NCBI GenBank assembly: GCA_947623225.1
Contig: CANQGO010000005.1
Coordinates: forward strand, 423 to 64,422
Reading direction: 5' to 3'
Source: an uncultured Clostridia bacterium
GTDB taxonomy: Bacteria > Bacillota > Clostridia > Christensenellales > CAG-314
Length of the DNA: 64,000 nt
A program made the position numbers and the translations under genes. Under the pieces are notes generated by a model. The model was not told where the DNA came from. It saw nothing but the letters and a program-made list of their open reading frames with translations, and searched no databases. This document shows positions 4,027 to 64,000 of the stretch, in pieces. Position 1 is the stretch's first letter, and each line of letters starts with the position of its first letter.

Positions 4027-4027
4027 T

Positions 4028-11394: not shown

Positions 11395-11943
11395 TCAATA
11401 TAGCCAGCCTCTGTACACCAACGTGACCGTTTTGACGTCGTCGTCCGTGCCGAATACCCCGTCCGCGCCCTGTAGCGTCTGGAAATTGGCGGTGTTGCCG
11501 TATTCGCCGTCCACCGCTATGTAGCAGGTCTCGAGATCGTAGTGGCTGCCGTCGGCGAGAGTGCAGTCGTGGAACATATAGAATCGGTGCTGAGACAGGC
11601 GAAATGTGATACTGTCCTCGCTGTCCTCGAAGTACTTGACCACCGACTCGTACACCGTGTTGCCGTAGACGGGTATCGTCCACTCGGCTATGAGTTCGCC
11701 GTCGGCGGTAGAGTGCGGGTAGGCGTCTCCCTCCTCTCTCTCCGTCCTGTCGGTGGGCAGGCGCAGTTCCAGAAGGAACGTAAGGTACTCTTCGTCGCTT
11801 GTCGTGCCCGCTTCGGTGCTCGTCTGCGGCTCTTTCACGCGGTAGTCCGCGTCGTCGGAGGTGGCGTCTTTGCCCCATACTCCGCATGCGGTGAGCAGCA
11901 GGGCACAGGCTGCGAGCATCAGGGCAATGCATATCCGCTTCAT
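11395..11943 (-). CDS. small lipoprotein, 182 aa, unknown family
   Basis: Lipobox MKRICIALMLAACALLLTAC. The start overlaps the upstream gene's stop (ATGA). Confidence 0.7.
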   Translation of the reverse strand: MKRICIALMLAACALLLTACGVWGKDATSDDADYRVKEPQTSTEAGTTSDEEYLTFLLELRLPTDRTEREEGDAYPHSTADGELIAEWTIPVYGNTVYESVVKYFEDSEDSITFRLSQHRFYMFHDCTLADGSHYDLETCYIAVDGEYGNTANFQTLQGADGVFGTDDDVKTVTLVYRGWLY

Positions 11944-13757
11944 AGTACTATCACCTTCTCCGCCGCGTCGTATGCACCCAGCGGAGTGGGAGCGTCTATG
12001 CCCTGTATGTACGCCAGGTAGGCTATAGCTACGGCGAGGTCGATATTGTTGTCTATGACGTACTTGTCACCCTCTGCGGTGAGCGTCTCACGCCATAGCG
12101 TTATTATGTTGTACTCGGTCGGTTCGCCTTCTACGGGTCGAGCAACGGTATAGTGCTCCATGTCTATGCCGTGCATGTAGCCCGTGAGCACAGCCCACTC
12201 CGGCGTGACGTTGGCACCCGTTTCCAATTCGTGGTTGTAGTACTTGCCCAATGTGTCGAGCGTTATCATCTCCTCGAGGGGTTGATTCCAGCCGTCGGTG
12301 AAGGGGAAGTAGCCCTGACGGTACTTCTCGAAGTCCACGTCGTACTCCGGATAGTCGCGGTAGAGCGAGGCGGCTACGGGTCTGCCGCTGGGTCCTACCC
12401 AGTTGGGCGTGCCGCCCTTTCGGGTGAATTCGCCGTTGTCGTCCTTGGCGTAGTAGCCCAGTACGGTGGCGTCGGTGTAGGGCAACTCCGCGTTCAGTGC
12501 CAGATTGGCACGCACGATGGCGAGATAGCTGTACGCCGTCATGCCGAAGGATACCTGCGTCACGGGCAGAAAACTCTTGTAGCGTCCCGCGAAGTCCTTG
12601 CCGTTGGCGTAGGAAGTGAATTGCTGCTCCAGCGTATTCAGCGTGCCCTTGATCTCGCGTATCTGCGCATTGACAGCGGTGCGCTCGGCGGACACCTCGT
12701 CCATCTGCGCCTTGATGGCGGGCTTGTCCTCTTCGCTTGCCGCACGATATTGCGCGTTTAACTCGCTATATTGTACATTCAAAGCGTCGTTTCTGTCGCT
12801 CAGCGGTTGCAACAGCGGTGCTATGCGCTCCTGCTCCGCGAGTATGGCTTCGTATCTCGGCTGCAGCGTCGCGTAGTCGGCGAGGAAGTCGGCGTGACCT
12901 CTGTCGCTGCCCGTGGCTTGCTGTACCGCCGCGAGCAACTGCTCTACGTAGTCCGACGGCATCTCGGCATAGCGCGTGGAAGTCATATTGGAAAAGCGGC
13001 TGTACTTGGCGGCGAGATTGATCTGATATATATTTTCGTCTCCCACTTGGTAGGTATTCTTGGTACCGCCGGACTCCCAAGCGTCGGCTCTTTCCAGATA
13101 GCGCGCTATGGCGTCGGAGTACACGTCGAATGTATTGTCCGTCAGCCCCTTGCCGTGCAGGTACTCCTTGTAGGCATTGGCGGCGATGGAGTAGGTGTAC
13201 AGGTAGTCGAGGATGCCGTACCAGCCCTGAGCCTGCGCTGCGGAGCCGTTCCACTTGTAGTCGGACAACTCGCCCTCTTCTATGAGTTCCGGAAGCATAT
13301 TCATATACTTGCGGAATAGCGCGGCATTGGCGTCGGTGTAGAAGTCGCCCTGCACGTACCGCAGGTATGCAAGGGGCAGCCAGGCGGCAGCCGTCTTGGC
13401 GGAAGATACGGAAGCGGCGAACTCGTCCGAGGCGAGGTACACGCGCAACGCGTCGGCTATACGCTCGGCAAGCGGCGCGTACGAGAAGCGTGCAGTCAGC
13501 GTCACGTCCTCCGTCACGGTATAGGGGAATGACACCCGCACCTCTCCGTCGTAGTACCCGTCGAAGTCAAATCCCGACTTGTGCGGATCCTCCAGCGTCA
13601 GCGCGTCCCCTTCTTGTCGTTCGTAGCGCGTCTGTACGCCATCCACGACGACGGTCACAGTGTGAACAAGCGGCGCAGAGTGCGGCTTGCAAGCCGAGAT
13701 GAACAGGGCAAGCAAGCACACGCACAGCAACGCCGCCATGTGTCTGAGTCTTTTCAT
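11940..13757 (-). CDS. large surface lipoprotein (605 aa): Listeria-Bacteroides-repeat (Flg_new-like) domain plus a long helical region, unknown function
   Basis: Lipobox MKRLRHMAALLCVCLLALFISAC at ATG 13757 with a GGAG RBS. HTVTVVVDGVQTRYERQEGDALTLEDPHKSGFDFDGYYDGEVRVSFPYTVTEDVTLTARF fits the Flg_new repeat pattern. It is the first gene downstream of the cobalamin riboswitch. Confidence 0.7.
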   Translation of the reverse strand: MKRLRHMAALLCVCLLALFISACKPHSAPLVHTVTVVVDGVQTRYERQEGDALTLEDPHKSGFDFDGYYDGEVRVSFPYTVTEDVTLTARFSYAPLAERIADALRVYLASDEFAASVSSAKTAAAWLPLAYLRYVQGDFYTDANAALFRKYMNMLPELIEEGELSDYKWNGSAAQAQGWYGILDYLYTYSIAANAYKEYLHGKGLTDNTFDVYSDAIARYLERADAWESGGTKNTYQVGDENIYQINLAAKYSRFSNMTSTRYAEMPSDYVEQLLAAVQQATGSDRGHADFLADYATLQPRYEAILAEQERIAPLLQPLSDRNDALNVQYSELNAQYRAASEEDKPAIKAQMDEVSAERTAVNAQIREIKGTLNTLEQQFTSYANGKDFAGRYKSFLPVTQVSFGMTAYSYLAIVRANLALNAELPYTDATVLGYYAKDDNGEFTRKGGTPNWVGPSGRPVAASLYRDYPEYDVDFEKYRQGYFPFTDGWNQPLEEMITLDTLGKYYNHELETGANVTPEWAVLTGYMHGIDMEHYTVARPVEGEPTEYNIITLWRETLTAEGDKYVIDNNIDLAVAIAYLAYIQGIDAPTPLGAYDAAEKVIVL

Positions 13758-13786
13758 AGTCCAATCTCCATTCAATGTAATTTCAA

Positions 13787-13812
13787 GGGTCTCCCATAGA
13801 CAAAGAGACCCC
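13787..13812 (-). terminator. expression-platform hairpin (possible attenuator) of the riboswitch
   Basis: On the minus-strand RNA, GGGTCTC, loop TTTGTCTATG, GAGACCC, then TTGAAATT. It lies about 30 nt upstream of ATG 13757. The U-tract is weak. Confidence 0.4.
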
Positions 13813-13850
13813 TTTCCGCGCTTTTCTCGAAACGCAGACAAAATCTCAAC

Positions 13851-14008
13851 GTGGGCGTGGCATTCGGACTTGTCCGAGCACTGTGTGTCGGCTTACCGTT
13901 GCGGAACAGTCCCCGATTCTCACGGGGTTCCCCGTTTGATGCACATACTTGCGCCGTGCAACCCAGGTGTATTCAATTGAGATCATCGTACCCTCTCGGG
14001 CACATTAC
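13851..14008 (-). promoter_or_regulatory. cobalamin (B12) riboswitch
   Basis: The minus-strand RNA contains AAACGGGGAACCCCGUGAGAAUCGGGGACUGUUCCGCAACGGUAAGCC (the conserved GGGAA...GUG.GAAU.C...CCGCAAC.GUAA core). It also contains the B12-box AGUCCGAAUGCCACGCC. Confidence 0.8.
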
Positions 14009-51215: not shown

Positions 51216-53021
51216 ATGACACAACAGAGAAAAGTCAGACTGACATTGTCCATCATAGTGTTGGCGGCACTCCTGCTCGCCGTGGCAATGCCTTTTGCTC
51301 TGAAAACTTCTGCCGCGGACGCCGCACCTGTATTGGCGGATACGTCTGCAACAAATACGTACTACAGCGGCAATTACTACAACAATCTGAATACCAACCT
51401 GACGGGCACGGCATTCAGGACGGAATTGTACAATTTGATATCCAATCCGCATAAGAATTCTACTTATGACGGATTGAAAACGGTATACAAGACATCCGAC
51501 GCGGACCCCAACAGAAACGGCAATATATTGTGGTTCTATACCGGTACGTCCACGTCCTACAACGGAAGTATGGGCAGTTCCGCAGGGACAACGAATCGTG
51601 AACACGTATGGCCCAAAAGAGGGGGCAAAGCCTTCACTCCCATAGAATCGGAAGCAGGCAGCGACGCTCACCATCTTCGCCCGACGGATGCGACGCTGAA
51701 TAGTACTCGCGGCGAAAAAGATTTCGACGAAGTGCCTCAGACCTCTTCGAATATAGTGTCCGAAGCCGGCAAGAAAAACTACGGCTCTTCTCCGGACGGA
51801 CTTTGCTATTCTACCAGTACGTCGTTCTATCCCGCCAAAGGCTATCGCGGAGCGACGGCGCGCATTTTGTTCTATGTGCAGGTGCGCTGGGGAGACAAAA
51901 ACAGTTTGCGATTTGTAGACACGGTGGGCACCTCCGGCAAGACGCTGGGCAAGATATCCACTTTGCTCAAGTGGCACCTGGAGGAGCCGCCTACAGAGGA
52001 GGAGATACGCCGCAACGAAGTGGTATTCGGCTTACAAAATAACCGCAACCCCTTCATAGATCACCCGGAGTATGCCGAGATGATATACTGCTACGACGGT
52101 CAGACTTACAACAACGCGCTCAAGGCGGTCGTGGAGTCACACGGCGGCGGATATATGAGCGGTACGCCCGTAGTGCCGCCGACGCCGGATGAGACGCCGA
52201 CGCAGTTGACGTTGTCGGCAAGTTCGCTCAGTCTGAAAGTGGGCGAGACCTCGCAGCCGATAACGGTATCGGCATTGCCGCAGGGCGCGAGCAACAGCGT
52301 GGTATGGGGCACGAGCGACAACAGCGTCGCCACCGTCAACAACGGCGCAGTGACTGCCGTGGGCGCAGGTACTGCCACCATCACGGCGGTAAGCGTACTG
52401 GACGAGAATGTGAAGGCAAGCCTTACGGTGACGGTGACGCAGGCGGAAGCACCGCCCGTTGTCATAGAAAAGTTGGAGATCTTTCCTTCTTCGCTATCCA
52501 TGACGCAGGGAGGTACGCGGCAACTCTCGGTGCAGGTGACGCCCGAGAGGGCGAGCACCGCAGTCACCTGGAGCAGTACGCAGCCCGACGTGGCTACGGT
52601 ATCGGCAAGCGGACTGGTCACGGCGGTGAAGGAAGGGGAGACTGTGATCACCGCGACGTCGGTGGCGGATCCCAACGTGTCTGCCAGCGTCAAGGTGAAA
52701 GTAGTGTCGCAGGCGGTGAATACGGAGACGTTCCGCTCGGCGATGGCGTCATACGGCGTGGCGCAGACATTGGAAGATAAGTATAACGCGCTGCAACGGG
52801 CGATAGAAGCCTACGGCAATATGGACGAAGCCTCCAAGGCTACGGTGACGGCGGAGCATGAGCAGATGATAGAAGCCGTCGAGAAGTTCAACGGCAGCGT
52901 GGGGATATACAACAACGAGATATACAACGCTGCACAGTTTGCTTCTCAGACGACGGCGTTGAGCATATCCGCTGTACTGCTGGCGATAGTCGCCATAGTA
53001 GGCAAGGCACTGGGGAGGTGA
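51216..53021 (+). CDS. secreted endonuclease I-family nuclease fused to two Big_2 Ig-like domains, with a C-terminal TM anchor
   Basis: Signal peptide, then NREHVWPK, DAHHLRPTD, NSTRGEKDF and NRNPFIDHPE (Endonuclease_1 motifs). Two Big_2-like repeats follow (VWGTSDNSVATV..GTATITA and VTWSSTQPDVATV..GETVITA). The terminal helix is ALSISAVLLAIVAIVGKALG. Confidence 0.8.
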   Translation: MTQQRKVRLTLSIIVLAALLLAVAMPFALKTSAADAAPVLADTSATNTYYSGNYYNNLNTNLTGTAFRTELYNLISNPHKNSTYDGLKTVYKTSDADPNRNGNILWFYTGTSTSYNGSMGSSAGTTNREHVWPKRGGKAFTPIESEAGSDAHHLRPTDATLNSTRGEKDFDEVPQTSSNIVSEAGKKNYGSSPDGLCYSTSTSFYPAKGYRGATARILFYVQVRWGDKNSLRFVDTVGTSGKTLGKISTLLKWHLEEPPTEEEIRRNEVVFGLQNNRNPFIDHPEYAEMIYCYDGQTYNNALKAVVESHGGGYMSGTPVVPPTPDETPTQLTLSASSLSLKVGETSQPITVSALPQGASNSVVWGTSDNSVATVNNGAVTAVGAGTATITAVSVLDENVKASLTVTVTQAEAPPVVIEKLEIFPSSLSMTQGGTRQLSVQVTPERASTAVTWSSTQPDVATVSASGLVTAVKEGETVITATSVADPNVSASVKVKVVSQAVNTETFRSAMASYGVAQTLEDKYNALQRAIEAYGNMDEASKATVTAEHEQMIEAVEKFNGSVGIYNNEIYNAAQFASQTTALSISAVLLAIVAIVGKALGR

Positions 53022-53025
53022 CGTG

Positions 53026-53625
53026 ATGAAGAAGATATATATATTGCTTGTCGCAGTCATACTCACGCTGACGCTGGTGTGCGCGGCGGCATGCGAGTCC
53101 GAAGAACTCACGGAGCAGATCAACGAAGCACTCAAAAAAGACTACACTTCCGTCACGGTGAATACCGTCGTGAAGATGGAAAGTTACACGTTGAACGGCG
53201 TGTACAATATCCGCTATGACGGAGATTCCGCCACGGTGGAGTATACATTTGACAAATTCAACACGCTGGACCCGAACGGGGACAACAGCGACTCCCTGAT
53301 ATCCACCGTATCCGGCACGGCGTCCGTGGTGGACGGCAAGATAGTCGGAGAGGACGTCGACCTCAATGCCGGTGTGCTGGCATATACGGGGTTCAGCTTC
53401 AAAAAGAATTTTCTCAAAGTGACCAACGACTCCAGGACGGTGCTGAACGCTCAGGTGCTCAACCCGAAGGCATTCGTAGGCAACAACGACTTCGGCGGCA
53501 CGGATATGACCGTCAGCGTCATCTGCGGCGGCGGTATCTTGCAAAAACTTGCCGTGGAGTACACATCCGTACAGGGCGCGAACGTCTCCGTGACCTACCT
53601 GTTCCAAACCGACTCTGCAAATTAA
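53026..53625 (+). CDS. lipoprotein, unknown function
   Basis: Lipobox MKKIYILLVAVILTLTLVCAAAC. It directly follows the nuclease gene. Confidence 0.7.
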   Translation: MKKIYILLVAVILTLTLVCAAACESEELTEQINEALKKDYTSVTVNTVVKMESYTLNGVYNIRYDGDSATVEYTFDKFNTLDPNGDNSDSLISTVSGTASVVDGKIVGEDVDLNAGVLAYTGFSFKKNFLKVTNDSRTVLNAQVLNPKAFVGNNDFGGTDMTVSVICGGGILQKLAVEYTSVQGANVSVTYLFQTDSAN

Positions 53626-53653
53626 CTTTTGCGCCTATTATATTGTTACAGAT

Positions 53654-53686
53654 CGTCCCCGAAGGATATCGGGGACGGTTTTTTTT
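53654..53686 (+). terminator. rho-independent terminator
   Basis: CGTCCCCGA, loop AGGATA, TCGGGGACG, then GTTTTTTTT. Confidence 0.85.
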
Positions 53687-53811
53687 GTTTTTTTATATTT
53701 ATATATAATATATCTACGATTTTTCTTTGAAAATTTACCTAAAATTTACTTGACGCGGTTACAATCATCTACAAGAGTGAAATTTCAGCCCAAAACAAAA
53801 GGAAATCAACT

Positions 53812-56800
53812 ATGCCGAAATTCAAAATAATATGTTTTGTAGTAGCCGCGATCATGGCGGCGGTAGGCACGATGCTGGTATTGAAGAACCTCAATAACGA
53901 CTTCGTGCCGCCGGACAAAGTAGTCTCGACGGACATGAATACCTATCTGGACAGGACGGAGGATATGGATATATCCGACCGTACTCGTGACGCACGCGAA
54001 TTTTTGTTCGTGGCGCACAAGATACTGCTGCAGCGTCCCGCCTTCAAGGGCGTATCCAGCGGAACGTCCACTGCTATGGGCGGTATCGAGCAGAGCGTAT
54101 TGAATACTCGCGTGGTTTTGGGTGAATTCGGCAACAAGCGCGTATTTAAGGAAATGGTGACCAAGGGCATAGTCAGCAACGCTTACCAACTGTATCTGGT
54201 AGGACTGGGCGAAACGGGCAACTACATATACCGCGGATTCGACAGAGTACGCGAGATAGACAACGTGGAGTGGAGCGGACAGGCTCAGCCGCTGTCCATG
54301 CAGGCATTTTACAACAGGTTCGGTCATCGCTCGGATAAGCTGACCAGCTACATACTGAACTGGGACACCGTTACCGACGGAGAGTTCGTGGAAGAGAAGG
54401 ACGGTCTGTACACATTCCTGTACAACCTCGACACTGAGACGGCACCGGCGGATCTGCGCTACGAGATGGTGACCAACGGCAATCTGGCTGACTTCCCCAA
54501 ATTTACCAAGTGCCGCATATACGTCACTATGGACGCCGACTTCAATATCCGTTCTCTGCGCACGGACTGCGCTTACCAAGCCACTACGATGGGTATCAAC
54601 GCACCCTGTGCGGAGGATATCACCGAGGTCATAGAGGACTACGAGGGAGATCTGCCCTATACGGACTTCTTCTCGGCGTATCTCGGTCAGGTGGGCGGCA
54701 ATGACATACAGAGCGATCCCACCGCGCTGAATATGCTTATGGATATGTTCGCGCCGTATCTCGGCGGTGAAGAGCTGAGAGCGTATATGACCGTCACGAA
54801 GGAGGGCGAAGCCGTCACCGACGCGCTCATCTCCCTGTCCGGACTGGATATAAGCGACCTGTCCAAGTTGACGGTGGATATGCGCTTGGGCGAGCTGAAC
54901 GTCTGCTACAAGCACGGCGAAGGCAAGATATTGGTCAATTGGCAAGACTTCAACGGCAGCGCGACGGTGGATGGTATCATGCAACTGGTCGAGGCGTTCT
55001 CTTCGCTCGGGGAGCCGCAAGCCCTCTCGGAGAGTGCTATGCCCGAGATAGACTTGGGCGCATTGCTGGAGGGGCTGACTTTCAGTACGGAAGGCAATAT
55101 ATGCACGGTGGACTTGCCTGTATCGCTCGAGCAGCTCATCGGCGTGGATATGCAGGTGAACGCTCGCTTCACGGGAGTGCTGCAGGGCGATAAGTATGTA
55201 TTCGACCACGCGGATATAAGTATCAACGATACCGATATACACATATCTCTGCGTGAGTGGACTCCGACGGTCATAGACGGCAACGCGCCCGAGATATTGG
55301 GACTTGCCGATCTGATAGTGAACGGCAAACTTGCGCTGAGCGCGGACGTGGAACTGCCGCTGTCCGACAGGACATACCGCGTGCAGGCAAACGTATTGGC
55401 TGATCTGGGCAACGGCTCCGTCAGCGCAGACGCGATACTGGGCAACAACGGCTCCGCGCACATTGTGTATGCGGACAACATAGCGTATCTCGCCCTTGGC
55501 AATGTGAAGGTGCGTCTGGACGTAGACGACACCGATGACCTGCTGACGCTCATAGGTCAATTCGCAGGCGACGGTCTGACGGGCGGAGCATTGCCGCAAG
55601 TAGACGTTGTGGAGATACTGGCACTGCTCGGCGGCTTCCGCGCAGAGGGCGACGGCAGCAACATAACGCTGTCGCTGAGTACGGATGAGCTGACGGTCGG
55701 ACTGGATATAGTCTCCGAACTCGGCAGATGGAATGTACGCTCCGTGACGGTACGGGGCATGGGCATAGAGGCGCAACTGACGCCGTCGGACATGCAGGGT
55801 GAGGTGACTGTACCCGCAGACGGCGACGAATACGCCGACATAACCGAGATGGTAGCCCAATTCGACGGGCCCATACTGGGACTGGCTGTAGCCAACGGCT
55901 ATGCGTTGAATGCGAATGTGGATCTCCTCTCCGACGGCACGGGATACCATCTTGCGGCGCAGGCGTATATAGACGAAGAGGGCAGCGTGAGCGTGAGTGC
56001 TTCCGTAGACAACGGCAATGTCAAGTTGCTGTGTGCGGATGCGGTGTACGCAAAAGACGCGTTGTATCTGCAACTCAACGGTATCAAGGTAGCTTTGCCT
56101 ATATCGGGAAGTGACGGGGACGTGGATATGTCCGCAGCACTTGACCGCCTTGCAGCAGATGAGCAGGTACGGCAGTTGCTGGCAGACAGCGGTATAGTGA
56201 AGATAGTCGCACTTGTCAGACAGTTGGCGGAGTTCGACCCGACGACGCTATTGGACGTGGACTTTGCCGCGCTCATCACCGACTTTGGATACGCTGACGG
56301 CGTACTGTCGCTGGCGGCAGACGGCAGCGCACTCGGGCTGGAGGGCGTGAGCATAGCTTGCTCGCTGTACGTACGCGACGGCGGACTGGCACTGGATATA
56401 GACCGACTGACATTTGCGGATATGACCCTGAGCGGAGACGTAGCGGTGGCTCCGTACAACAGAACGATAGCATTGCCCGACGCGAAGGAGTACGTGACGG
56501 CATTGTATGCCGAGTTGATGGGCGCGCAGGCGTATATCACGGCGGATCTTCTGAATGACGACATATGGGCAAGTGTACATATAGGCAACGAGGATATACT
56601 GCTGCGTTACACGGCAGGCAAGGTATATTTGGTATACGGCGGAGCGCGTATAGCGATAGATACGAAAGAACTGGACACGCTGACGGAGAAGATAGAACAA
56701 CTGACAGGCACTGTCGATACGGCTATGCCGGATATGACGCAACTGCTGGCGGTATTTGCCGCATTGAGCGCGGACTTCACAGGCGAACCGAATATCTCCC

Positions 56801-59800
56801 TCGTATACGGCGATATAGACCTGAGAGTGAACTTCACCGAGCGGGACGGCGCGTTGCTGTTTGAGGAAGTGTGTGTGACATTCGCCATAGAGGGCGAGAC
56901 GTACGAGGCGCGCCTGACGCAGAGCGACAGGCAAGCGGACAAGTTGAGTACGGCGGGCGAATTCGTCAACGGCAATGTGCTTGCAGAGCAACTGATGGAT
57001 ACCGTGCTGACGCTGAAGGACGCCGAAGCGGTGCAATTGACGATAGAGAACGCTCGTCTTACGGTGGGCGGAAGCGTGTATTCGGCGGACGTGACGCTGA
57101 ACACCAACGGCGGCACGGCATTGACGCTGTCACTGCGTGACGGCACCACACGCAAGGCGTTGGTATACGCCGACATACGTATACTGGACGGCGTGGCATA
57201 TATAGACTTCAACGGTATCAGACAGGCTTTGGACCTGACCGAGATACTCCCGTCCGGTCAGACGGATATGCCCGAGGCGGCTGCCGTCATAGCCGTACTG
57301 TACGAGTTGAGAGGTATGAACGGCGTATTGGACAGCATACTGGACGCTGTGGACAGGTTGCCGCGCGACCTTGACGGTATCACATTCTCGCAGATAATAG
57401 AGCATGTGACGCAGACGCAAAACGGTATAAGCGTTCGTCTGGATCCGTCGCAATTTGCACTGGACGGCGTCACGCTGGATATAGGCTTGGGCGTTGCGCC
57501 GACGATAGGCGTGGACGGTTTCACGTTGGGCGAGGTATCGGTATCCTTCGAGGCGGCATTGGATTGCTCGACAGAGCCGGTGACGGAGCCGGAAGGCGAC
57601 TACGGCACGGTGCTGAGCGTGAGTTATGGCGAGATGAGCGGTGCCGTGATGCTGGACCTGTACGGCAAGAGCGTGTACGGTCAGCTGGATATCACGGACA
57701 AGGACACGGTGCTCTTTGAGTACGAAGGCGGCAATGTATACCTGCAATACGGCAATGTGAATGTCGTATGCGGTACCAAGGATATAGGTCTGCTGCTGGC
57801 TGCGGTGAGCAAGTTCGTCACACTGCCCGAATTGCCGCAGACGGACGGCACAGACATATTGCAGACTGTGAAAGAGGTATTTTCGCAGATGGGATATACC
57901 CGTACAGACACGGAAGAAGGCTATATGCTGACCGTGCGCTACGGCGACATGAGCGTATATGTGCGCTTCCGTTGCGACGGCGACAGAGTGAGCGCGGACA
58001 GCATAGAGATACTGCCCGACGGTACACAGACTATCGCGTTGCGCTTCGGCGAGGCGGATATAGCACGGCTGGACACGCAAGCGCGCTTCGACGATATCAC
58101 CCGTATAGTGGATACATTCGCTCAACCCGTTGCGGATATCCTGAACGCAAACAGCTATGGCGCGCACTTCGATATCTCGCTGGACGCGGGCGGCGAATAC
58201 TACGCCGAGGGCGACTTCACGCTGGATGCGCAGGGCAATATATCCGTCGCGGCACTGGTGAAGGATGGCGATATCGATATTTTGGATATAGCTCTGACGC
58301 GCATGGGCGAGTCGGTATATCTCACCGTCAACGGCATAAGCGTGAGGTTCCGTATGCAGGGTACCGAGGGCGCAGACGTGAGCGGTATAGCGCAGCTGCT
58401 GGAGGACGAACGAATACAGGCTGTGCTGAGCGAACACCCGAGTATAGCCGCGCTGATAGACCGGATACAGACCGTCGCGGACAAACTCGCGCATACGGAT
58501 ATCGCTACGATAGCCTTTGCCAAGCTCATAGACTCGTTTGAGTTCGATGACGGCACGGATACATTGACGGTGGGCGTCGACGCGAGCGACCTGTCGCTGG
58601 GCAGATTCACTCTCCGTCTGTGCAACGACGACGGCAACCTCGTGCTGTCGCTGAGCGATCTGGAATTGGCGGATATACGCCTGAGAGAGGCGGAAGTGAC
58701 GCTCATGACGAACGTTGCGGACGTGACGGTGCCGGGCGAGGCGCAGGACTACATACTCAAACTGAACATATCCGGCTTCGGCGCAAATATAGACCTCGCG
58801 GCGGATCTGTACAATATGGACATATGGGCACAGATACACTACACGCACGAGGAGATACAGGGTATCACAATAGACGAGTACGCTTCGGTACTCTTCAGTG
58901 ACAATATCCTGTATGTGGATCTGAACAATATACACCTCAAGTTCCGCACGTCGGGACTTATGGACGCCGTAACGCGTATCATGGCTCTGGCAGGAGCAAG
59001 CGGATCGGTGAATGTCGCCGATATAGACGTGAATGACATCCTGTCTCGCCTGGACTACGAGATAGTGGGCGGCAACCCGCTGTTGACATACGAGAGCAAC
59101 GGATTGACGCTGGCGGTACGCTTCGGACGCGACGAGCAAGGCAGATTGGCATTTGCCGGCGTGACGGGAGACATAGGCGGCGAGAAGATAGAGATAACTC
59201 CGCAGCAGTCTGCCGTGACGGAGCAGCCGTCTACTGAAGGAACGTATACCGACGGCAACGATATGCTGGATACGGTAAGCAACGTGCTGAATATACTGGA
59301 CGTCAAGGCATTGGCAGCTGGCACCAAGGGTATAGATACCAACTTCGACCTGTCGCTGAGCCTCGACGGCAGAGCGTACACGGCGGCACTGCGCGTGCAG
59401 TACTTCGAGGGACTGAAAGTATGGCTGACGCTGTACGACGGAAGCGCGGAAGAGGGTAAACTCATCGCCCAAGGCAGCGTAACGTTCAAGGCGGGCGTAC
59501 TGTACATAGACGTCAACGGTATCCGACAGGCTGTGGATCTGAGGAGTCAAGGCGAGCACGCGGGCGAAGGTGCGACAAGCGTACAGGGCGGCGAGAAGAA
59601 GTTCTCGCTCGATCAACTGAGCGGTGCGCTGGAGCAGTACAGACATATGCATGGCGTCATAGACGCTGTCATAGACCTGGTGCAGGGACTGCCCGAGCGT
59701 CTGCGCTCGATAGATACGGTATCCTCACTTATAGTTGGACTCACGGCGGATGACGGCAAGGTGACATTGGCACTCAACGGACCTGCTATAGGTCTCAAGC

Positions 59801-62800
59801 GCAACGTAGCCGTCACGGTGGGAGTACAGGACGGCAAAGCGACCTACTCCATAGGAGATATAGCACTGCCGAGCGTTACGCCTACGGCGAAGGCAACGTA
59901 TGCGTTGTTCGCCACGCTGTCCGGCAGTATATGCGCCACAAGCGAAGCGGTGAAGGTAGAGGGCAGCGCAGAGGACTATATCACCGACCTGTCCCTCGAC
60001 CTGACTCAGTCCGCGCCCGTCATGACGATGGCGTACGGCGAGAGCGTACAGCAGGTGTTGCACGCGGGCATACGTCTGGATCTGTATCACGGGCTCATAC
60101 ACGCGACCGTCTCCTACGGCGGCAACCAAGTGACGCTGGAGGTGGATATATCCGAAGGCATAGCCGACGGCGTCGTGTATGTATTGGTGGGCAAGGATAT
60201 CTCCTCCGGCACCAAGATGAAGTTCGACCTCGCCGATACGGACAGCCTAATGCAGGCACTGGCTCAGATGGGCATCGAGTTGCCCGAGACGAGCGGCAAC
60301 GGCGGCAGCGTCTCCGATACGGCAAGCAAATTGCTTGGCGGCATACGCTACGAGCGTGCTGTACAGGGCGGCAAGGACGTCGGCTACACGCTGGCACTGA
60401 ATATAGAAGGTATATCAGTGGGCGTGGGCTTCCGTGCCGAGTCGGACGGACTGACGCTGGACGATCTGTCCCTGTACGGCGGTAACTTCCTGCTGAGCAA
60501 GGCGTCTACCGACTACGACGTGACGGAGTTGAACGCGGCAGACAACGCGCAGGCTTACTCCTTCGACGCGGCGGAGGTGCTGGAGGCATTCGCACCCTCT
60601 ATCGGCAGTCTGCTGGCTCCCGAGGGCGGCTACACGCTGCAACTGAATGGCGTCACGCTGGGACTGCTCCGTCAGGGCAATTCCTACTACAAGGTAGACG
60701 GCTCCGTCACGATAGCGGAGGGCAATATACATATCAAATTGACCGCTCACAGCGGCTCGGACAAGTACAACTTCGCAGGCAATGCGTTGCTGAGCGACGT
60801 GGAAGTATGGCTGTATGAGGACGCGCTGTATATCGATCTGGGCGGTATCAGAGTGAGAGTGCCGATGAATAACTCGGACGAGCAGCAGTCGGATACGGAT
60901 ATAGACTCCGTGCTGAACGCGCTCAAGGGCTACAGCGACAGCATAGACGCCGTGGTGACCCTGATCGAGAATATATTAGCTACGGACTTGCACACGCTCA
61001 ACGTGACGGATATGCTGGGTTTGAAGTATGCAGACGGTACGCTCACTGCCAACGTGGACGGCAGCAGGTGGGGTATCAACGAATTCTCGCTGAACGCACA
61101 GCCGCTGGACAAGGGTATATCGATCACTCTGGGCGATCTGGAGAGTGATAACACGCTGTATCTCGGCGGTAATATCACCGTCACGGGCGACGGCAGCGTC
61201 GACAAGCCCATAGGCAATGACTGGGCGACGGATCTGGATATCACCATCGACGATCACGGCGACATGAGCAACAAAGTCCACGTCAGAGTAGACCTGACGG
61301 ACAAAAAAGTATACGCCGAGATAGAGTCTCCCTCTGCGACCGACACCGCCAGACTGTATGTCAAGTACGATATCCCGACCAATACATTGTGGGTAACCGA
61401 CAAGAATAAAGTTAACGCGTCCGTGAATATAGACAGCGTGAGCCGTCTCGTGGACGAGGTGCAGAAGATAGTCGTGCAGGTATCCGGCGACGAGAATGAG
61501 AAACTGCCCGACCTTATAGGCGGCGGCTTGGATCTCAAGGCTATCAAGGACTCTTTGGAGATCACCCACGACACCGCACGCGGCACTCTCGGCGCGTCGC
61601 TCACCGCTATGGGCTTCGGAGTGACTGTGGAGATAGCCAACGGTGCTATCACGGCAAAAGTGAATGTCGGCAGCATATTCCCCGAGACCGCTTTGCACGT
61701 GGGCAGAGCACAGGCGTCTCAGAAGGGTATGGCTGAGGACCTCGACGAGTATATCGGCAAGTACGACAAGCAGGACTCTTCCCGCAAGTTCGTCTCGCTG
61801 GATACCATACTGAACTACTGGTTCTACAAGAACGGCGAGGTGAGCGAGGATCCCGAGGACAACGGCGTCATATACGACCTTGTCAATACCAACGCCTGGA
61901 TGTTTGCCTTCGACGGCGACGTACAGGGCGACAACAGTACGGAACTCACGCTCAACGGTACCACTTACCGCATAGGTCAAGGCTCCTTCCTCTCCTTCTA
62001 CTTCGACAAGGCAGAGACCTCCTTCAGTATGGAGACGCTCATAGACGAATTCGGTCAGAAGGACAAGACGCAGGCGTACAACGATCTGTTCATCCTGCTC
62101 AACTCTCTGCAACTGCGCGCCAAGTTGAATATATACAAGGGCACTACGGACGCAAGCGGCAATATGACCTTCTCCGAGTGCATGCTGCTGGACGTGGCAT
62201 TGCTGCGCGACACGGCAAGCAAGGAAGCGGACAAGAACACTTCCCGCCTGTATGTGAGCTACGATACGAGCAGCAACTCGAGTCGTCCCGGTACCCTGCG
62301 CGCTACTCTCAGCGTGGATACCTTGAAGAACGTCATCCAACTCAAGGACGAACTGGATAAGGTGCTGGGCGGTGCCATCACCGGTATGGTCAACTCCATC
62401 ACCAAGATGATAGCCGACATGCAGCAGAACGCGGCAGAGTTGCGCATTGGCAAACTCGCTCGCCTGTTCAACGAAGTGAGCTACGGCGGCGAGGACCGCA
62501 CGGGCACCAACCTGGTACTGAGGCTCAACGGCTCCGTGCTGGGCGGCGACATAGGCGAGATCGGTCTGGACGTACAACCCTACAACAGCGCGGACGCGAG
62601 CATAGGCAACGGCTTGCAGGTCAACGCTCTGCAGTTCTCCTACGGCGATATCAGCCTGGATCTCCGCAATGTGACGGTCACGGCAAGTCCCTTCACCTCC
62701 ACAGGCGACGGCGACACCGCAGACGCTCGCAAGTATACATACGTGGATTCCCGTATAGACTCCTACCGCACGGACAACCGCGCAGGCGCAGCCACCGGCA

Positions 62801-64000
62801 GCGCGTCGGATATGACCGCCAGCGGCTATGACAGAGCCAACGACCACGGCAGCGATATGACCAACTTCATCAACCTGGACAGCCTGTACGAGTTGGCGTC
62901 CTCCGTCATCATCACCGCATCCAACTACGGTGCCAAGACGCCCGCAGGTACCACACCCGCGCGCGTAGATGAGGGCTATCGCTCCTTCAGGATAGAAGGG
63001 GATCTGACTATTAGTCTGCATTTGTTGGGTAGAGATATACAATTGAGTAATATTCATCTTACTATGTATGCGGATATAGATAAGGACGGAGAGAGTTACT
63101 TCGCTGTCAAGATCCATAGAGATGAGGATAATATCCCATTAGTGGAGGCGTTCGCAGATAAGGGAGGAGACAGTTATCTGACATTCGATACGGTCAGCAA
63201 AACATTCAGTGTGTACAGGGATTCAATTTTGAGTAGGAAAATTTGCCCGGGATGTGGATTATCCATTTACCATGTTGTTAAGGAAAAAAGGAATGGTGAC
63301 TGGCGGGCAGTTGAATATGGTTATTGCGATAATCCCGAATGTAAGGATAGGAATAGTTACAAATTGAGTGCGTGGGCGTCTGCTGATAAACTTGGTTCTG
63401 AGGCGACCGGCATGCCGGATTTCCATGATACCGGTATCACTCCCGCCGAGTTCATGAGCAACTTGATGAGCGGCACGGCAGACGCGAGATGCCCGCGTGG
63501 ATATCTGTTTGAGATGATAAATCTTGGCTCGCTCTTAGGTCAAAAAATTGAAAAAATTATAATGGATCAAATAGGTAAACAGGATAGCAAAGTATTCGGT
63601 GTGGACTATGGTGTGGAGGATATACTGGACAGCGGCGACTCGTACAACTACGGCGACGCCGTGGACAATAGCAACAAACCCGTAACCGACCACAAACAGT
63701 TCCAGGTCAAGGCAAATCTTAAACCTATATCGAGTGCGTTGGGTACGCTGGATATCAAGATACACCACAGCGGCGACTTCAAGCAGTTGATGCAGTATCA
63801 GGACGGCAAGTGGGTGTATGACGAGAGTAAGTTGGCAGAGATCAAACTGGACAGACTGTGCGGCGGATTAAATATAGTTACTTCAACCGGGTTAACGATT
63901 ATACAAATTGATTTCGACCTTACGCACACGACGCCGGGATACGGTACAGCGGCGTATTACGTACAGAACAACGCGGATATGTGGAACTTGAGTATACCGT
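53812..64000 (+). CDS. giant membrane-anchored repeat protein, 5' part only (at least 3,396 codons in the window, no stop reached), no recognised family
   Basis: ATG 53812 follows AAAAGGAAA. I translated the frame by hand to position 63999 and met no stop. Frame checkpoints were confirmed at 54001, 55000, 57001 and 60001, and codon by codon from 63001 to 63999. No fragment of this frame appears in the ORF track, which is consistent with an ORF lacking an in-window stop. The N-terminus MPKFKIICFVVAAIMAAVGTMLVLKNL is a single TM anchor. Confidence 0.85.
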   Translation, partial: MPKFKIICFVVAAIMAAVGTMLVLKNLNNDFVPPDKVVSTDMNTYLDRTEDMDISDRTRDAREFLFVAHKILLQRPAFKGVSSGTSTAMGGIEQSVLNTRVVLGEFGNKRVFKEMVTKGIVSNAYQLYLVGLGETGNYIYRGFDRVREIDNVEWSGQAQPLSMQAFYNRFGHRSDKLTSYILNWDTVTDGEFVEEKDGLYTFLYNLDTETAPADLRYEMVTNGNLADFPKFTKCRIYVTMDADFNIRSLRTDCAYQATTMGINAPCAEDITEVIEDYEGDLPYTDFFSAYLGQVGGNDIQSDPTALNMLMDMFAPYLGGEELRAYMTVTKEGEAVTDALISLSGLDISDLSKLTVDMRLGELNVCYKHGEGKILVNWQDFNGSATVDGIMQLVEAFSSLGEPQALSESAMPEIDLGALLEGLTFSTEGNICTVDLPVSLEQLIGVDMQVNARFTGVLQGDKYVFDHADISINDTDIHISLREWTPTVIDGNAPEILGLADLIVNGKLALSADVELPLSDRTYRVQANVLADLGNGSVSADAILGNNGSAHIVYADNIAYLALGNVKVRLDVDDTDDLLTLIGQFAGDGLTGGALPQVDVVEILALLGGFRAEGDGSNITLSLSTDELTVGLDIVSELGRWNVRSVTVRGMGIEAQLTPSDMQGEVTVPADGDEYADITEMVAQFDGPILGLAVANGYALNANVDLLSDGTGYHLAAQAYIDEEGSVSVSASVDNGNVKLLCADAVYAKDALYLQLNGIKVALPISGSDGDVDMSAALDRLAADEQVRQLLADSGIVKIVALVRQLAEFDPTTLLDVDFAALITDFGYADGVLSLAADGSALGLEGVSIACSLYVRDGGLALDIDRLTFADMTLSGDVAVAPYNRTIALPDAKEYVTALYAELMGAQAYITADLLNDDIWASVHIGNEDILLRYTAGKVYLVYGGARIAIDTKELDTLTEKIEQLTGTVDTAMPDMTQLLAVFAALSADFTGEPNISLVYGDIDLRVNFTERDGALLFEEVCVTFAIEGETYEARLTQSDRQADKLSTAGEFVNGNVLAEQLMDTVLTLKDAEAVQLTIENARLTVGGSVYSADVTLNTNGGTALTLSLRDGTTRKALVYADIRILDGVAYIDFNGIRQALDLTEILPSGQTDMPEAAAVIAVLYELRGMNGVLDSILDAVDRLPRDLDGITFSQIIEHVTQTQNGISVRLDPSQFALDGVTLDIGLGVAPTIGVDGFTLGEVSVSFEAALDCSTEPVTEPEGDYGTVLSVSYGEMSGAVMLDLYGKSVYGQLDITDKDTVLFEYEGGNVYLQYGNVNVVCGTKDIGLLLAAVSKFVTLPELPQTDGTDILQTVKEVFSQMGYTRTDTEEGYMLTVRYGDMSVYVRFRCDGDRVSADSIEILPDGTQTIALRFGEADIARLDTQARFDDITRIVDTFAQPVADILNANSYGAHFDISLDAGGEYYAEGDFTLDAQGNISVAALVKDGDIDILDIALTRMGESVYLTVNGISVRFRMQGTEGADVSGIAQLLEDERIQAVLSEHPSIAALIDRIQTVADKLAHTDIATIAFAKLIDSFEFDDGTDTLTVGVDASDLSLGRFTLRLCNDDGNLVLSLSDLELADIRLREAEVTLMTNVADVTVPGEAQDYILKLNISGFGANIDLAADLYNMDIWAQIHYTHEEIQGITIDEYASVLFSDNILYVDLNNIHLKFRTSGLMDAVTRIMALAGASGSVNVADIDVNDILSRLDYEIVGGNPLLTYESNGLTLAVRFGRDEQGRLAFAGVTGDIGGEKIEITPQQSAVTEQPSTEGTYTDGNDMLDTVSNVLNILDVKALAAGTKGIDTNFDLSLSLDGRAYTAALRVQYFEGLKVWLTLYDGSAEEGKLIAQGSVTFKAGVLYIDVNGIRQAVDLRSQGEHAGEGATSVQGGEKKFSLDQLSGALEQYRHMHGVIDAVIDLVQGLPERLRSIDTVSSLIVGLTADDGKVTLALNGPAIGLKRNVAVTVGVQDGKATYSIGDIALPSVTPTAKATYALFATLSGSICATSEAVKVEGSAEDYITDLSLDLTQSAPVMTMAYGESVQQVLHAGIRLDLYHGLIHATVSYGGNQVTLEVDISEGIADGVVYVLVGKDISSGTKMKFDLADTDSLMQALAQMGIELPETSGNGGSVSDTASKLLGGIRYERAVQGGKDVGYTLALNIEGISVGVGFRAESDGLTLDDLSLYGGNFLLSKASTDYDVTELNAADNAQAYSFDAAEVLEAFAPSIGSLLAPEGGYTLQLNGVTLGLLRQGNSYYKVDGSVTIAEGNIHIKLTAHSGSDKYNFAGNALLSDVEVWLYEDALYIDLGGIRVRVPMNNSDEQQSDTDIDSVLNALKGYSDSIDAVVTLIENILATDLHTLNVTDMLGLKYADGTLTANVDGSRWGINEFSLNAQPLDKGISITLGDLESDNTLYLGGNITVTGDGSVDKPIGNDWATDLDITIDDHGDMSNKVHVRVDLTDKKVYAEIESPSATDTARLYVKYDIPTNTLWVTDKNKVNASVNIDSVSRLVDEVQKIVVQVSGDENEKLPDLIGGGLDLKAIKDSLEITHDTARGTLGASLTAMGFGVTVEIANGAITAKVNVGSIFPETALHVGRAQASQKGMAEDLDEYIGKYDKQDSSRKFVSLDTILNYWFYKNGEVSEDPEDNGVIYDLVNTNAWMFAFDGDVQGDNSTELTLNGTTYRIGQGSFLSFYFDKAETSFSMETLIDEFGQKDKTQAYNDLFILLNSLQLRAKLNIYKGTTDASGNMTFSECMLLDVALLRDTASKEADKNTSRLYVSYDTSSNSSRPGTLRATLSVDTLKNVIQLKDELDKVLGGAITGMVNSITKMIADMQQNAAELRIGKLARLFNEVSYGGEDRTGTNLVLRLNGSVLGGDIGEIGLDVQPYNSADASIGNGLQVNALQFSYGDISLDLRNVTVTASPFTSTGDGDTADARKYTYVDSRIDSYRTDNRAGAATGSASDMTASGYDRANDHGSDMTNFINLDSLYELASSVIITASNYGAKTPAGTTPARVDEGYRSFRIEGDLTISLHLLGRDIQLSNIHLTMYADIDKDGESYFAVKIHRDEDNIPLVEAFADKGGDSYLTFDTVSKTFSVYRDSILSRKICPGCGLSIYHVVKEKRNGDWRAVEYGYCDNPECKDRNSYKLSAWASADKLGSEATGMPDFHDTGITPAEFMSNLMSGTADARCPRGYLFEMINLGSLLGQKIEKIIMDQIGKQDSKVFGVDYGVEDILDSGDSYNYGDAVDNSNKPVTDHKQFQVKANLKPISSALGTLDIKIHHSGDFKQLMQYQDGKWVYDESKLAEIKLDRLCGGLNIVTSTGLTIIQIDFDLTHTTPGYGTAAYYVQNNADMWNLSIP
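54915..61700 (+). repeat. degenerate in-frame tandem protein repeats inside the giant ORF (sub-unit about 190 aa, unit about 380 aa, super-unit about 755 aa)
   Basis: A recurring strand motif, x-Y-[IL]-x-[LFV]-N/G-G-I-x-x-x, appears at 55480, 56059, 56620, 57193, 57733, 58312, 58906, 59497 and 60823. NGIRQA(L/V)DL occurs at 57193 and 59497. ADL(L/Y)N.DIWA..H occurs at 56542 and 58801, 2,259 nt apart. Confidence 0.7.
63244..63342 (+). other. Cys4 zinc-ribbon-like motif encoded inside the giant ORF
   Basis: The sequence CPGC-GLSIYHVVKEKRNGDWRAVEYGY-CDNPEC gives the spacing CxxC-x23-Cx4C. It lies inside the low-GC patch. Confidence 0.45.

Follow-up and report, generated by a model that had tools for sequence, protein, structure and literature searches.

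A giant Clostridia protein predicted to carry a tandem array of LolA-fold modules on a membrane anchor

What kind of protein is encoded by a bacterial reading frame that stays open for 10.2 kb and in which sequence profiles recognize no domain? The question is raised by a stretch of 64,000 nucleotides from an uncultured Clostridia bacterium (contig CANQGO010000005.1, positions 423 to 64,422; hereafter the window), near the end of which a frame opened by ATG 53812 runs to the last base of the forward strand. The original prediction, made from the letters of the window and a list of its open reading frames (ORFs), described this frame as a single unterminated giant ORF, saw no recognizable domain in its product, and named it the best candidate in the window for an undescribed cell-surface system. 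The analysis reported here leads to the answer that the giant ORF is a real gene and that its product is likely to be a series of tandem LolA-fold modules (~190-250 amino acids (aa) each) on a membrane anchor. So read, a known ligand-binding fold appears in a new giant, membrane-anchored tandem arrangement, and no curated sequence family or report that we found covers the protein family.

That the gene is real follows from its open frame and coding signal, from 266 family representatives and from a complete collinear ortholog. Machine translation of 53812-63999 gave 3,396 codons with zero stops up to the last complete codon, in agreement with the hand translation behind the original prediction. 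A stop-free run of this length has a probability of ~1e-63 at the local base composition, and the remaining five frames over the same 10.2 kb contain 13-258 stops. The antisense ORFs at 53806-56073, 57130-59652 and 60976-63117 and the Arg/Gly-rich ORFs in the +2 frame, which had been explained as shadows of the coding frame, are present and fit that explanation. Codon-position composition was coding-like, with 40% G at position 1, 39% GC at position 2 and 70% GC at position 3. The nearest upstream in-frame stop lies at 53740, no ATG, GTG or TTG occurs between this stop and 53812, an AAGGA ribosome-binding site is placed 8-9 nt 5' of the ATG, and the orthologs all begin MPK[FV]KI. P0003, a public 3,412-aa protein encoded on a 67,350-bp contig of an NCBI assembly, is 100% identical over all 3,396 residues, and therefore the gene ends 16 codons past the window edge. 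Its full C-terminus has the tail ...WNLSIPYWTNNCGINGQIEKQA / ...NLSIPYWTNNCGINGQIEKQA. The composition (L 11%, D 9.7%, G 9.2%, A 8.7%, V 7.7%, T 7.3%) and the low isoelectric point (pI) agree with the acidic body rich in D, G, L, V and T that had been described, and this body is presumably extracytoplasmic. The claim of a terminator-bounded transcription unit stood for one end: the hairpin at 53650-53681 sets the giant gene apart on its 5' side, while the 3' side lies beyond the window.

The ORF might also have arisen by chance or through faulty assembly, or it might encode a polymorphic toxin or an RHS-type effector that profiles fail to recognize. Six of the seven ortholog contigs (L003, L004, L005, L006, L007, which is the same contig as L001, and L008) break off within the giant gene, and a homolog on an ENA metagenome contig (P0002, at 1104-3425 of L002) has an in-frame stop after codon 773, beyond which the contig continues; both observations would fit such a reading. 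The homolog may be a truncated allele, a pseudogene or the result of a sequencing error. No long or near-identical direct, inverted or tandem repeat and no tandem array was found in the DNA of the window copy, where the largest imperfect match is 49 nt at 82%; exact repeats therefore do not account for the contig breaks, and no DNA repeat was seen that could have caused misassembly. The breaks may reflect strain-level heterogeneity in a fast-evolving gene, or the size of the gene relative to short contigs. Against an artefact or a toxin also stand the negligible chance probability and strong codon-position bias given above, collinear orthologs at ~40% identity, one of them complete, a confident structural model, the absence of RHS/YD repeats or toxin domains from profile searches of the giant protein, and a C-terminus that is conserved (60-63%) and not polymorphic. 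Frame statistics, orthologs, model and conserved C-terminus effectively refute this reading, which we regard as hardly credible.

Sequence searches placed the protein in no named family. The giant protein had no match in Pfam, NCBIfam, PHROGs or PADLOC, and none among PDB sequences by phmmer or two profile searches, which bears out the earlier statement that it holds no named sequence domain. Pfam and NCBIfam gave no immunoglobulin-like (Ig-like), cadherin, Big, FIVAR, cohesin or choline-binding domain in it. Sixteen diverse relatives likewise had no Pfam match at E<=1e-3 and gave only non-recurring noise at E<=10. At the latter threshold the protein and these 16 relatives matched neither LolA, LolB, MucB_RseB, LppX_LprAFG, LolA_like, DUF4367 and similar families nor AsmA, AsmA_2 and TamB (DUF490). 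An in-frame stop or frameshift and a confident profile match to a characterized family were the outcomes that the original prediction had named as speaking against it, and neither was found.

The family itself is large. An exhaustive HMMER search of 1.84 billion cluster representatives, with residues 1-1200 as the query, found 266 matches at E<=1e-3, each standing for a cluster at 50% identity, and 60 of them reached E<=1e-30; many are 1,500-3,400 aa long. A word-indexed protein search with shorter queries and an N-domain profile was nearly blind to the family and returned 2-3 proteins. Seven orthologous loci were found in species-representative genomes, all of them metagenome-assembled genomes (MAGs) of uncultured Clostridia, mostly from rabbit gut. 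The 150-kb contig L009 carries the complete ortholog, a protein of 3,361 aa that is collinear with the giant protein (residues 1-3391 against 1-3349) at 40% identity. In public databases the family members are named only 'hypothetical protein', and one comes from the cultured mouse-gut species Pumilibacter intestinalis (WP_251548384.1), so that the protein is not undescribed in the sense of being absent from the databases. The Pumilibacteraceae, which GTDB lists as family CAG-552 within the 'Christensenellales', were obtained by filtration at 0.45 um; their growth is slow and restricted to agar, and they have few carbohydrate-active enzymes. Literature searches brought up no precedent, whether for giant Clostridia proteins, for AsmA-like proteins of Firmicutes or for LolA-like domains in tandem.

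A BLASTP self-comparison of the giant protein showed no repeats. They were found by hidden Markov models (HMMs) built from the orthologous columns of individual 190-aa slices and by profile-profile comparison with hhalign, and a motif, [VA]Y[LI]x[LV]NG[IV][KR]V, returns approximately every 190 residues. The slice HMMs separated two alternating module types of ~190 aa, A and B, with cross-detection within a type down to 2e-28 (A) and 1.5e-40 (B) and between the types at ~1e-10 to 1e-6. In hhalign, the homology of A with B had a probability of 81-98%, which narrowed to 95-98% apart from three pairs, all involving A5. The 'one repeat unit' mentioned in the original prediction thus has a counterpart, in the form of these ~190-aa modules of two alternating types. 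The profile comparisons strongly support a run of 12 mutually homologous modules (N2, five A-B pairs and C1) that reaches through residue 2650 and follows a unique first domain, N1 (Table 1). Most of the 266 family representatives match the giant protein in N1; the identity of this domain among close orthologs is 60-84%, and its residues 40-310 had no profile similarity to the other modules.

Beyond C1 the repeats fade. C2 (residues 2650-2850) had no significant profile relation to any module, and the start of C3 (aa 2850-3020) matched B1-B5 with an hhalign probability of 95-97% over 79-100 columns, so that C2-C3 may represent a degenerate or interrupted B module. The distal region (residues 3020-3412) had no profile relation to the modules. 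Its identity to L009 is 45-63% over aa 3020-3396 and 60-63% over the last two hundred residues (aa 3201-3396), compared with 29-44% for the repeat region (aa 501-2450). The distal region is common to relatives of different length and starts, depending on the family member, at residue 858, 956, 1254, 1611, 2346 or 2450. Relatives keep both ends and differ in their number of A-B pairs, for which these positions suggest a range from about one to five. Four distant members of ~2,400-2,600 aa (P0084, P0089, P0106 and P0120) have Ala/Thr/Asn/Gln-rich, coiled-coil-looking tails in place of the C-terminal region, which suggests alternative distal ends within the family. The four-cysteine segment of the distal region was considered as a core zinc-binding feature and rejected, as only 7 of 124 long members carry this insertion, which varies in form; in P0015 and P0023 the same position is occupied by a longer Cys-rich insert of up to 55 aa with 12 Cys.

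Table 1. The giant gene, the parts of its product and the adjoining genes, with residue numbers of the product and positions in the window.
Feature	Residues	Position	Strand	Basis and remarks
Giant ORF	3,396 codons in window; full protein 3,412 aa	53812..64000	+	~368 kDa, pI 4.3
Ribosome-binding site (AAGGA) and start codon ATG 53812		53798..53814	+	No alternative start after stop 53740
N-terminal membrane helix, after K3 and K5	4-27	53821..53892	+	Sole hydrophobic segment (aa 1-28); helix in model
N1, family signature domain	~60-310	53989..54741	+	Most conserved part; modelled N-terminal helix, then 6 + 5 strands with intervening helices; pLDDT 88-98
N1 strands	first six 77-161; last five 187-276			DSSP of model
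N2, first repeat-type module, type-A-like	311-500	54742..55311	+	hhalign 98.0-99.6% to A1-A5; 6 strands, helical lid, 5 strands (DSSP of model)
N2 strands	first six 322-385; last five 423-480			DSSP of model
Super-repeat 1	A1 500-695; B1 691-890	55309..56481	+	Slice HMMs, hhalign, model with 6+5 strands per module
A1 strands	first six 506-570; last five 610-658			DSSP of model
B1 strands	first six 697-763; last five 822-881			DSSP of model
Super-repeat 2	A2 882-1078; B2 1070-1260	56455..57591	+	Slice HMMs, hhalign
Super-repeat 3	A3 1260-1450; B3 1440-1640	57589..58731	+	Slice HMMs, hhalign
Super-repeat 4	A4 1633-1835; B4 1836-2082	58708..60057	+	Slice HMMs, hhalign
Super-repeat 5	A5 2083-2285; B5 2286-2450	60058..61161	+	Slice HMMs, hhalign
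C1, further type-A-like module	2450-2650	61159..61761	+	hhalign 95.6-99.4% to A1-A5
C2-C3	2650-3020	61759..62871	+	C2 unique sequence; first ~100 residues of C3 resemble second half of B module
Distal C-terminal region	3020-3396, plus 16 aa outside window	62869..64000	+	Unique sequence, more conserved than repeats
Four-cysteine insertion CPGC...CDNPEC, zinc-ribbon-like or disulfide-knuckle-like	3145-3177	63244..63342	+	In 7/124 long family members, at similar distance from C-terminus, in variable form
Terminator-like hairpin with T-run, closing the upstream lipoprotein-like gene		53650..53691	+	Hairpin 53650-53681, 13-pair stem with 7 G-C pairs, then TTTTTGTTTT
Lipoprotein-like 200-aa ORF (MKKIYILLVAVILTLTLVCAAAC...)		53023..53625	+	No Pfam family; directly upstream in 7/8 distinct close-clade loci, 34-46% identity; lipobox imperfect
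Endonuclease I with two Big_2 domains, putative secreted nuclease		51216..53021	+	Upstream; conserved in close clade only

The structure of residues 1-890 was predicted with AlphaFold2 from a 55-sequence family alignment. The model had a mean predicted local distance difference test score (pLDDT) of 87.8, with 565 residues at or above 90, and a predicted template modelling score (pTM) of 0.63; an earlier run on 3 sequences had a pLDDT of 35 and was discarded for three-dimensional purposes. Assignment of secondary structure with DSSP placed a helix at residues 4-27 and, after it, four modules, in each of which a helical or loop segment separates six antiparallel strands from five further ones. 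The pLDDT was ~88-95 over the junctions between modules and reached its minimum of 55-73 in the lid segments, between strand 6 and strand 7.

The model was compared by Foldseek with the PDB, and the best 50 of 1,256 matches were evaluated; the output does not state which part of the query, and hence which module, was aligned. Within these 50, all matches with a probability of ~1.0 (0.99-1.00) belong to the LolA fold superfamily: LolA (2zpc, 9azz, 8cgm), LolA3 (9tp6), LprG (3mh8), LppX (2byo), RseB (2v42/2v43), a 'lipoprotein-sorting' domain (3bk5) and the ependymin-type carotenoprotein EPD-BCP1 (8i34). The target-normalized template modelling (TM) scores were 0.43-0.53 for 2zpc, 8i34, 3mh8, 9azz and 2byo and 0.31-0.36 for 9tp6, 3bk5 and 8cgm. 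The two-barrel proteins AttH (2ich) and BFA1 (5yvf) were also matched, over 433-453 aligned columns, and other matches, such as DDB1 and a pre-ribosome, had low probability and a TM score of ~0.06. Against viral structures, only tail-fibre and clamp matches of low probability and a few small, uncharacterized LolA-sized ones were obtained. In the LolA fold, 11 antiparallel strands form a highly curved sheet, with a long lid loop that packs on the concave face between strands 1-6 and 7-11 (PMC6363788), and the four modelled modules all show this topology. Members of the superfamily, which also include LolB, VioE and EPDR1 and are mostly monomeric, have a hydrophobic pocket and share less than 12% sequence identity (PMC6363788). 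Sequence methods are therefore blind to such a relationship, and the profile searches excluded the named families and not the fold superfamily. Since A1, B1 and N2 have homologs in C1 and in the remaining A and B modules, at least 13 LolA-fold modules are predicted in the protein. This per-module assignment draws on the modelled strand topology together with the homology between modules, and on these grounds we consider tandem LolA-fold modules on a membrane anchor the probable architecture. The earlier statement that the protein contains no recognizable domain at all does not hold at the level of the predicted fold, which belongs to a known superfamily of hydrophobic-ligand binders.

The same model could also be read as one continuous beta-taco groove of the AsmA-like or repeating-beta-groove type (TamB, YhdP, VPS13), in which case the LolA matches would be a local resemblance between curved amphipathic sheets. 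An N-terminal anchor leads directly into a very long beta-rich region, as would be expected of such a bridge, and the confidently modelled junctions are compatible with a continuous sheet. The repeating-beta-groove unit consists of five strands and a crossing element, and the giant protein resembles it in that groups of 5-6 strands are broken by helices approximately every 95 residues. However, no TamB, VPS13, ATG2-type or other bridge-like structure was among the best 50 of the 1,256 fold matches, compared with about ten independent LolA-fold entries at a probability of ~1.0, and the AsmA, AsmA_2 and TamB (DUF490) profiles found nothing in the searches described above. In addition, the host appears to have no outer membrane for a bridge to reach, and the 6+5 topology with a long lid is the signature of the LolA fold (PMC6363788). 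We therefore consider a continuous groove improbable.

The anchor of the predicted LolA-fold array is the N-terminal helix. The basic tail and single hydrophobic helix that the original prediction had described were recovered as the sole hydrophobic segment of the protein, signal-anchor-like in character, and a basic-then-hydrophobic segment was present at the N-terminus of every family member inspected. No small-x-small cleavage motif was seen past the hydrophobic core. The helix is best read as an uncleaved signal anchor, which by the positive-inside rule would leave the N-terminus inside and the acidic body outside the cytoplasm. A C-terminal LPXTG motif, not seen in the part of the protein that the original prediction could inspect, is absent from the full 3,412-aa protein and from the complete ortholog in L009, and SLH, CW_binding and similar wall-binding profiles of Pfam and NCBIfam had no match. 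An LPXTG adhesin was accordingly rejected, as the full C-terminus carries no such motif and no adhesin profile matched. The modelled modules are also LolA-like and do not form the beta-sandwich of adhesin repeats.

The neighbourhood of the gene was conserved over a short phylogenetic range. The nuclease and lipoprotein that had been noted as neighbours were identified as an Endonuclease I/Big_2 protein and a lipoprotein-like ORF, and the close clade keeps the order MatE, serine dehydratase, nuclease, lipoprotein, giant gene. In related genomes the Endonuclease I gene varies in length (392-601 aa), and the precomputed Pfam list of the L001 product shows only Endonuclease_1. The lipoprotein was considered as a free-standing copy of a module and rejected, having no profile relation to the modules. 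In L009 the giant gene is followed by two convergent ORFs without a Pfam match and then by rplK-rplA. Two distant family members stand alone in unrelated contexts, one of them two genes downstream of spoIIE, and therefore no operon partner is conserved across the family. No LolCDE-type partner was found near the giant gene. Of the proposal of an undescribed cell-surface system, a plausible surface protein on which no report was found is left; the system reduces to one monocistronic gene, and it is only within the close clade that the nuclease and the lipoprotein stay beside it.

Elsewhere the window reads as an ordinary chromosome, with DnaE, ProRS, MurB, an RND (resistance-nodulation-division) pump followed by a cardiolipin synthase, ABC and MFS transporters and a P-type ATPase. 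No outer-membrane genes were found in the 64 kb window or in the related loci, and the relatives, one of which lies beside spoIIE, occur in Clostridia MAGs and in Pumilibacter; the host thus appears to have a single membrane. The ORF of the pump, an AcrB/RND-type transporter, takes up the first 4026 positions of the window (+); next comes a cardiolipin-synthase-like PLD protein at 3995-5560 (+), and no TolC-like or membrane-fusion gene was seen beside it. A cobalamin riboswitch (RF00174) is located at 13837-13981 (-), with 48.2 bits and an E value of 5e-9, directly upstream of a 633-aa ORF at 11940-13841 (-). Pfam gave no match for this ORF, whose product may be a B12-related transporter or binding protein that has escaped annotation.

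The spoIIE neighbour of the one distant relative bears on a role in sporulation or in the envelope at division. By analogy with SsdC (YdcC) and GerS, the protein could act in the intermembrane space during engulfment or in the morphogenesis of cortex or coat. SsdC (YdcC) of Bacillus subtilis is a membrane-anchored RseB-like sporulation protein. The characterized Firmicutes proteins with a LolA/RseB fold are sporulation or germination factors, as reported for GerS (10.1101/2025.01.13.632879). However, synteny with spoIIE was found at one locus and the other contexts are unrelated, no sporulation genes flank the giant gene in the window, and a rod of at least 13 modules would far exceed the intermembrane space. 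On balance, a sporulation role is quite improbable.

For the function of the tandem LolA-fold protein, we tentatively favour an envelope-spanning rod of LolA-like pockets that handles hydrophobic cargo, and give this reading somewhat less than an even chance. It is favoured because the LolA fold forms a hydrophobic-ligand pocket and because the most conserved module adjoins the membrane; the confidently modelled junctions (pLDDT ~88-95) were counted in support of its rigidity. The protein would form a rigid rod that leads from the membrane through and beyond the Gram-positive wall, with a length of ~45-60 nm if each module contributes 3-4 nm, as estimated from the size of LolA-type domains. 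Its pockets would bind hydrophobic cargo such as lipid, glycolipid or the acyl chains of lipoproteins, which N1 may load or unload at the membrane surface. The serial pockets may then hand the cargo from module to module, as LolA does to LolB, or hold it, and the lid segments, which have lower model confidence, could gate them. The distal region may attach to a surface layer, to some component of the wall or to another cell, and the number of A-B pairs would set the reach of the rod. Taken by itself, the hydrophobic-cargo function suggested by the predicted fold is quite possible, though not probable.

Several points weigh against a cargo-handling rod. The structural model covers residues 1-890 only, and the Foldseek TM scores are moderate, with a root-mean-square deviation (rmsd) of 6-10 A and the matched part of the query not reported. 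No conserved transporter or acceptor gene accompanies the giant gene across the family, and the single membrane of the host is itself deduced. The fold does not guarantee lipid handling: within the LolA superfamily RseB is a regulator and VioE an enzyme (PMC6363788), and the LolA-like GerS of Clostridioides difficile is reported to be an allosteric activator of an amidase (10.1101/2025.01.13.632879). Finally, the repeats diverge fast and vary in number and the protein is highly acidic, features found just as typically in surface stalks and adhesins. In the close clade the flanking housekeeping genes are 64-87% identical and the giant protein ~40%, and therefore the giant protein evolves much faster than its neighbours.

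These last features lead to a structural stalk or adhesin, in which the LolA-like modules would be rigid building blocks, as Ig-like domains are in other giant surface proteins, and would carry no lipid. The C-terminal region would then be held tens of nanometres out and attach to host material, mucus, bacteria, or extracellular DNA or matrix. On Gram-positive surfaces, giant repeat proteins of acidic character usually serve as adhesins or spacers, which was counted in its favour as a prior expectation. Repeats that diverge much faster than the neighbouring genes, a varying number of repeat pairs between conserved ends, and the proximity, in the close clade, of a secreted-type nuclease with Big_2 domains and a lipoprotein-like gene would all suit a stalk, and LolA-fold proteins with non-lipid roles exist in RseB and GerS. 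On the other hand, no adhesin-type domain and no LPXTG, SLH, cohesin or choline-binding anchor was found. The anchor is an N-terminal helix and the most conserved domain is membrane-proximal, which differs from the tip position expected of an adhesin, and the strict alternation of A and B with confident junctions suggests a defined continuous structure and not interchangeable spacers. We regard a stalk or adhesin as a real but somewhat doubtful possibility, only a little less likely than the cargo-handling rod.

The two functions differ in what they would mean. LolA-fold proteins are known as single-domain carriers or regulators, and a tandem array was not found described. If the pockets of the cargo-handling rod are functional, the protein would offer a route for lipids, glycolipids or lipoproteins through the thick wall of one-membrane bacteria and extend the bridge-like lipid transport proteins by a new class; if the modules serve structure alone, they would represent a kind of building block that is new among the giant surface fibres of bacteria. 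In either case, a family of gut Clostridia proteins, 1,000-3,400 aa long and in at least 266 sequence clusters, would receive a structural annotation, and the cultured carrier Pumilibacter intestinalis (WP_251548384.1) makes experiments possible. The boldest version, which we consider unlikely, is that at least 13 LolA-type pockets in a ~50 nm rod to the surface or to a neighbouring cell constitute a third independent architecture for moving hydrophobic molecules across the envelope, beside the beta-grooves of AsmA, TamB and VPS13 and the Lpt and MCE bridges. The rod would then carry lipoproteins or lipids of the envelope outward, or serve to scavenge lipids from the host or from other cells, and the number of A-B pairs would be tuned to envelope thickness in carriers that include small, slow-growing gut Clostridia such as the Pumilibacteraceae.

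Among known systems, TamB, YhdP and VPS13 share with the giant protein an N-terminal anchor, a very long beta-rich rod and a proposed movement of lipid; the giant protein differs from them by its discrete predicted 6+5 LolA-type units and by a host that apparently has no outer membrane. GerS and SsdC/YdcC share the fold superfamily, the phylum and an extracytoplasmic membrane tether, and they exemplify a Gram-positive use of the LolA fold without a Lol pathway. They are single-domain proteins with roles in sporulation or germination, to which no sequence relation of the giant family was detected, and GerS acts by protein-protein activation of an amidase and not by lipid transport. RseB/MucB, AttH and BFA1 gave the longest structural alignments to the model (392-453 columns, probability 0.9-1.0), which is consistent with two consecutive half-barrel domains such as a predicted A-B pair. 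Over two domains, however, the TM scores were 0.21-0.36 and the rmsd 15-24 A, which indicates that the domain orientation differs from that in the model, and these proteins are regulators, assembly factors or uncharacterized proteins of ~300 aa and not repeat arrays.

LprG and LppX, the mycobacterial carriers of glycolipids and phthiocerol dimycocerosates (PDIM), have a LolA-type fold (Foldseek probability 1.0, target-normalized TM 0.47-0.49) and are extracytoplasmic and membrane-tethered, as the giant protein is read to be. Both are proposed to shuttle hydrophobic lipids of the envelope outwards across a thick wall, as described for LprG (PMC6363788). Both are single-domain lipoproteins of ~200-240 aa of the Pfam family LppX_LprAFG, which has no match here, and form no tandem array. 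LolA and LolB have no sequence similarity to the giant protein but share with its predicted modules the 11-stranded 6+5 sheet with a lid, with Foldseek probabilities of ~1.0 to LolA of several species. They are single-domain proteins of ~180-200 aa, soluble or lipid-anchored in the periplasm of two-membrane bacteria, whereas the giant protein of Clostridia would fuse at least 13 such modules into one chain. The 'mouth-to-mouth' transfer of cargo from LolA to LolB would be the model for a hand-over between adjacent modules of the giant protein.

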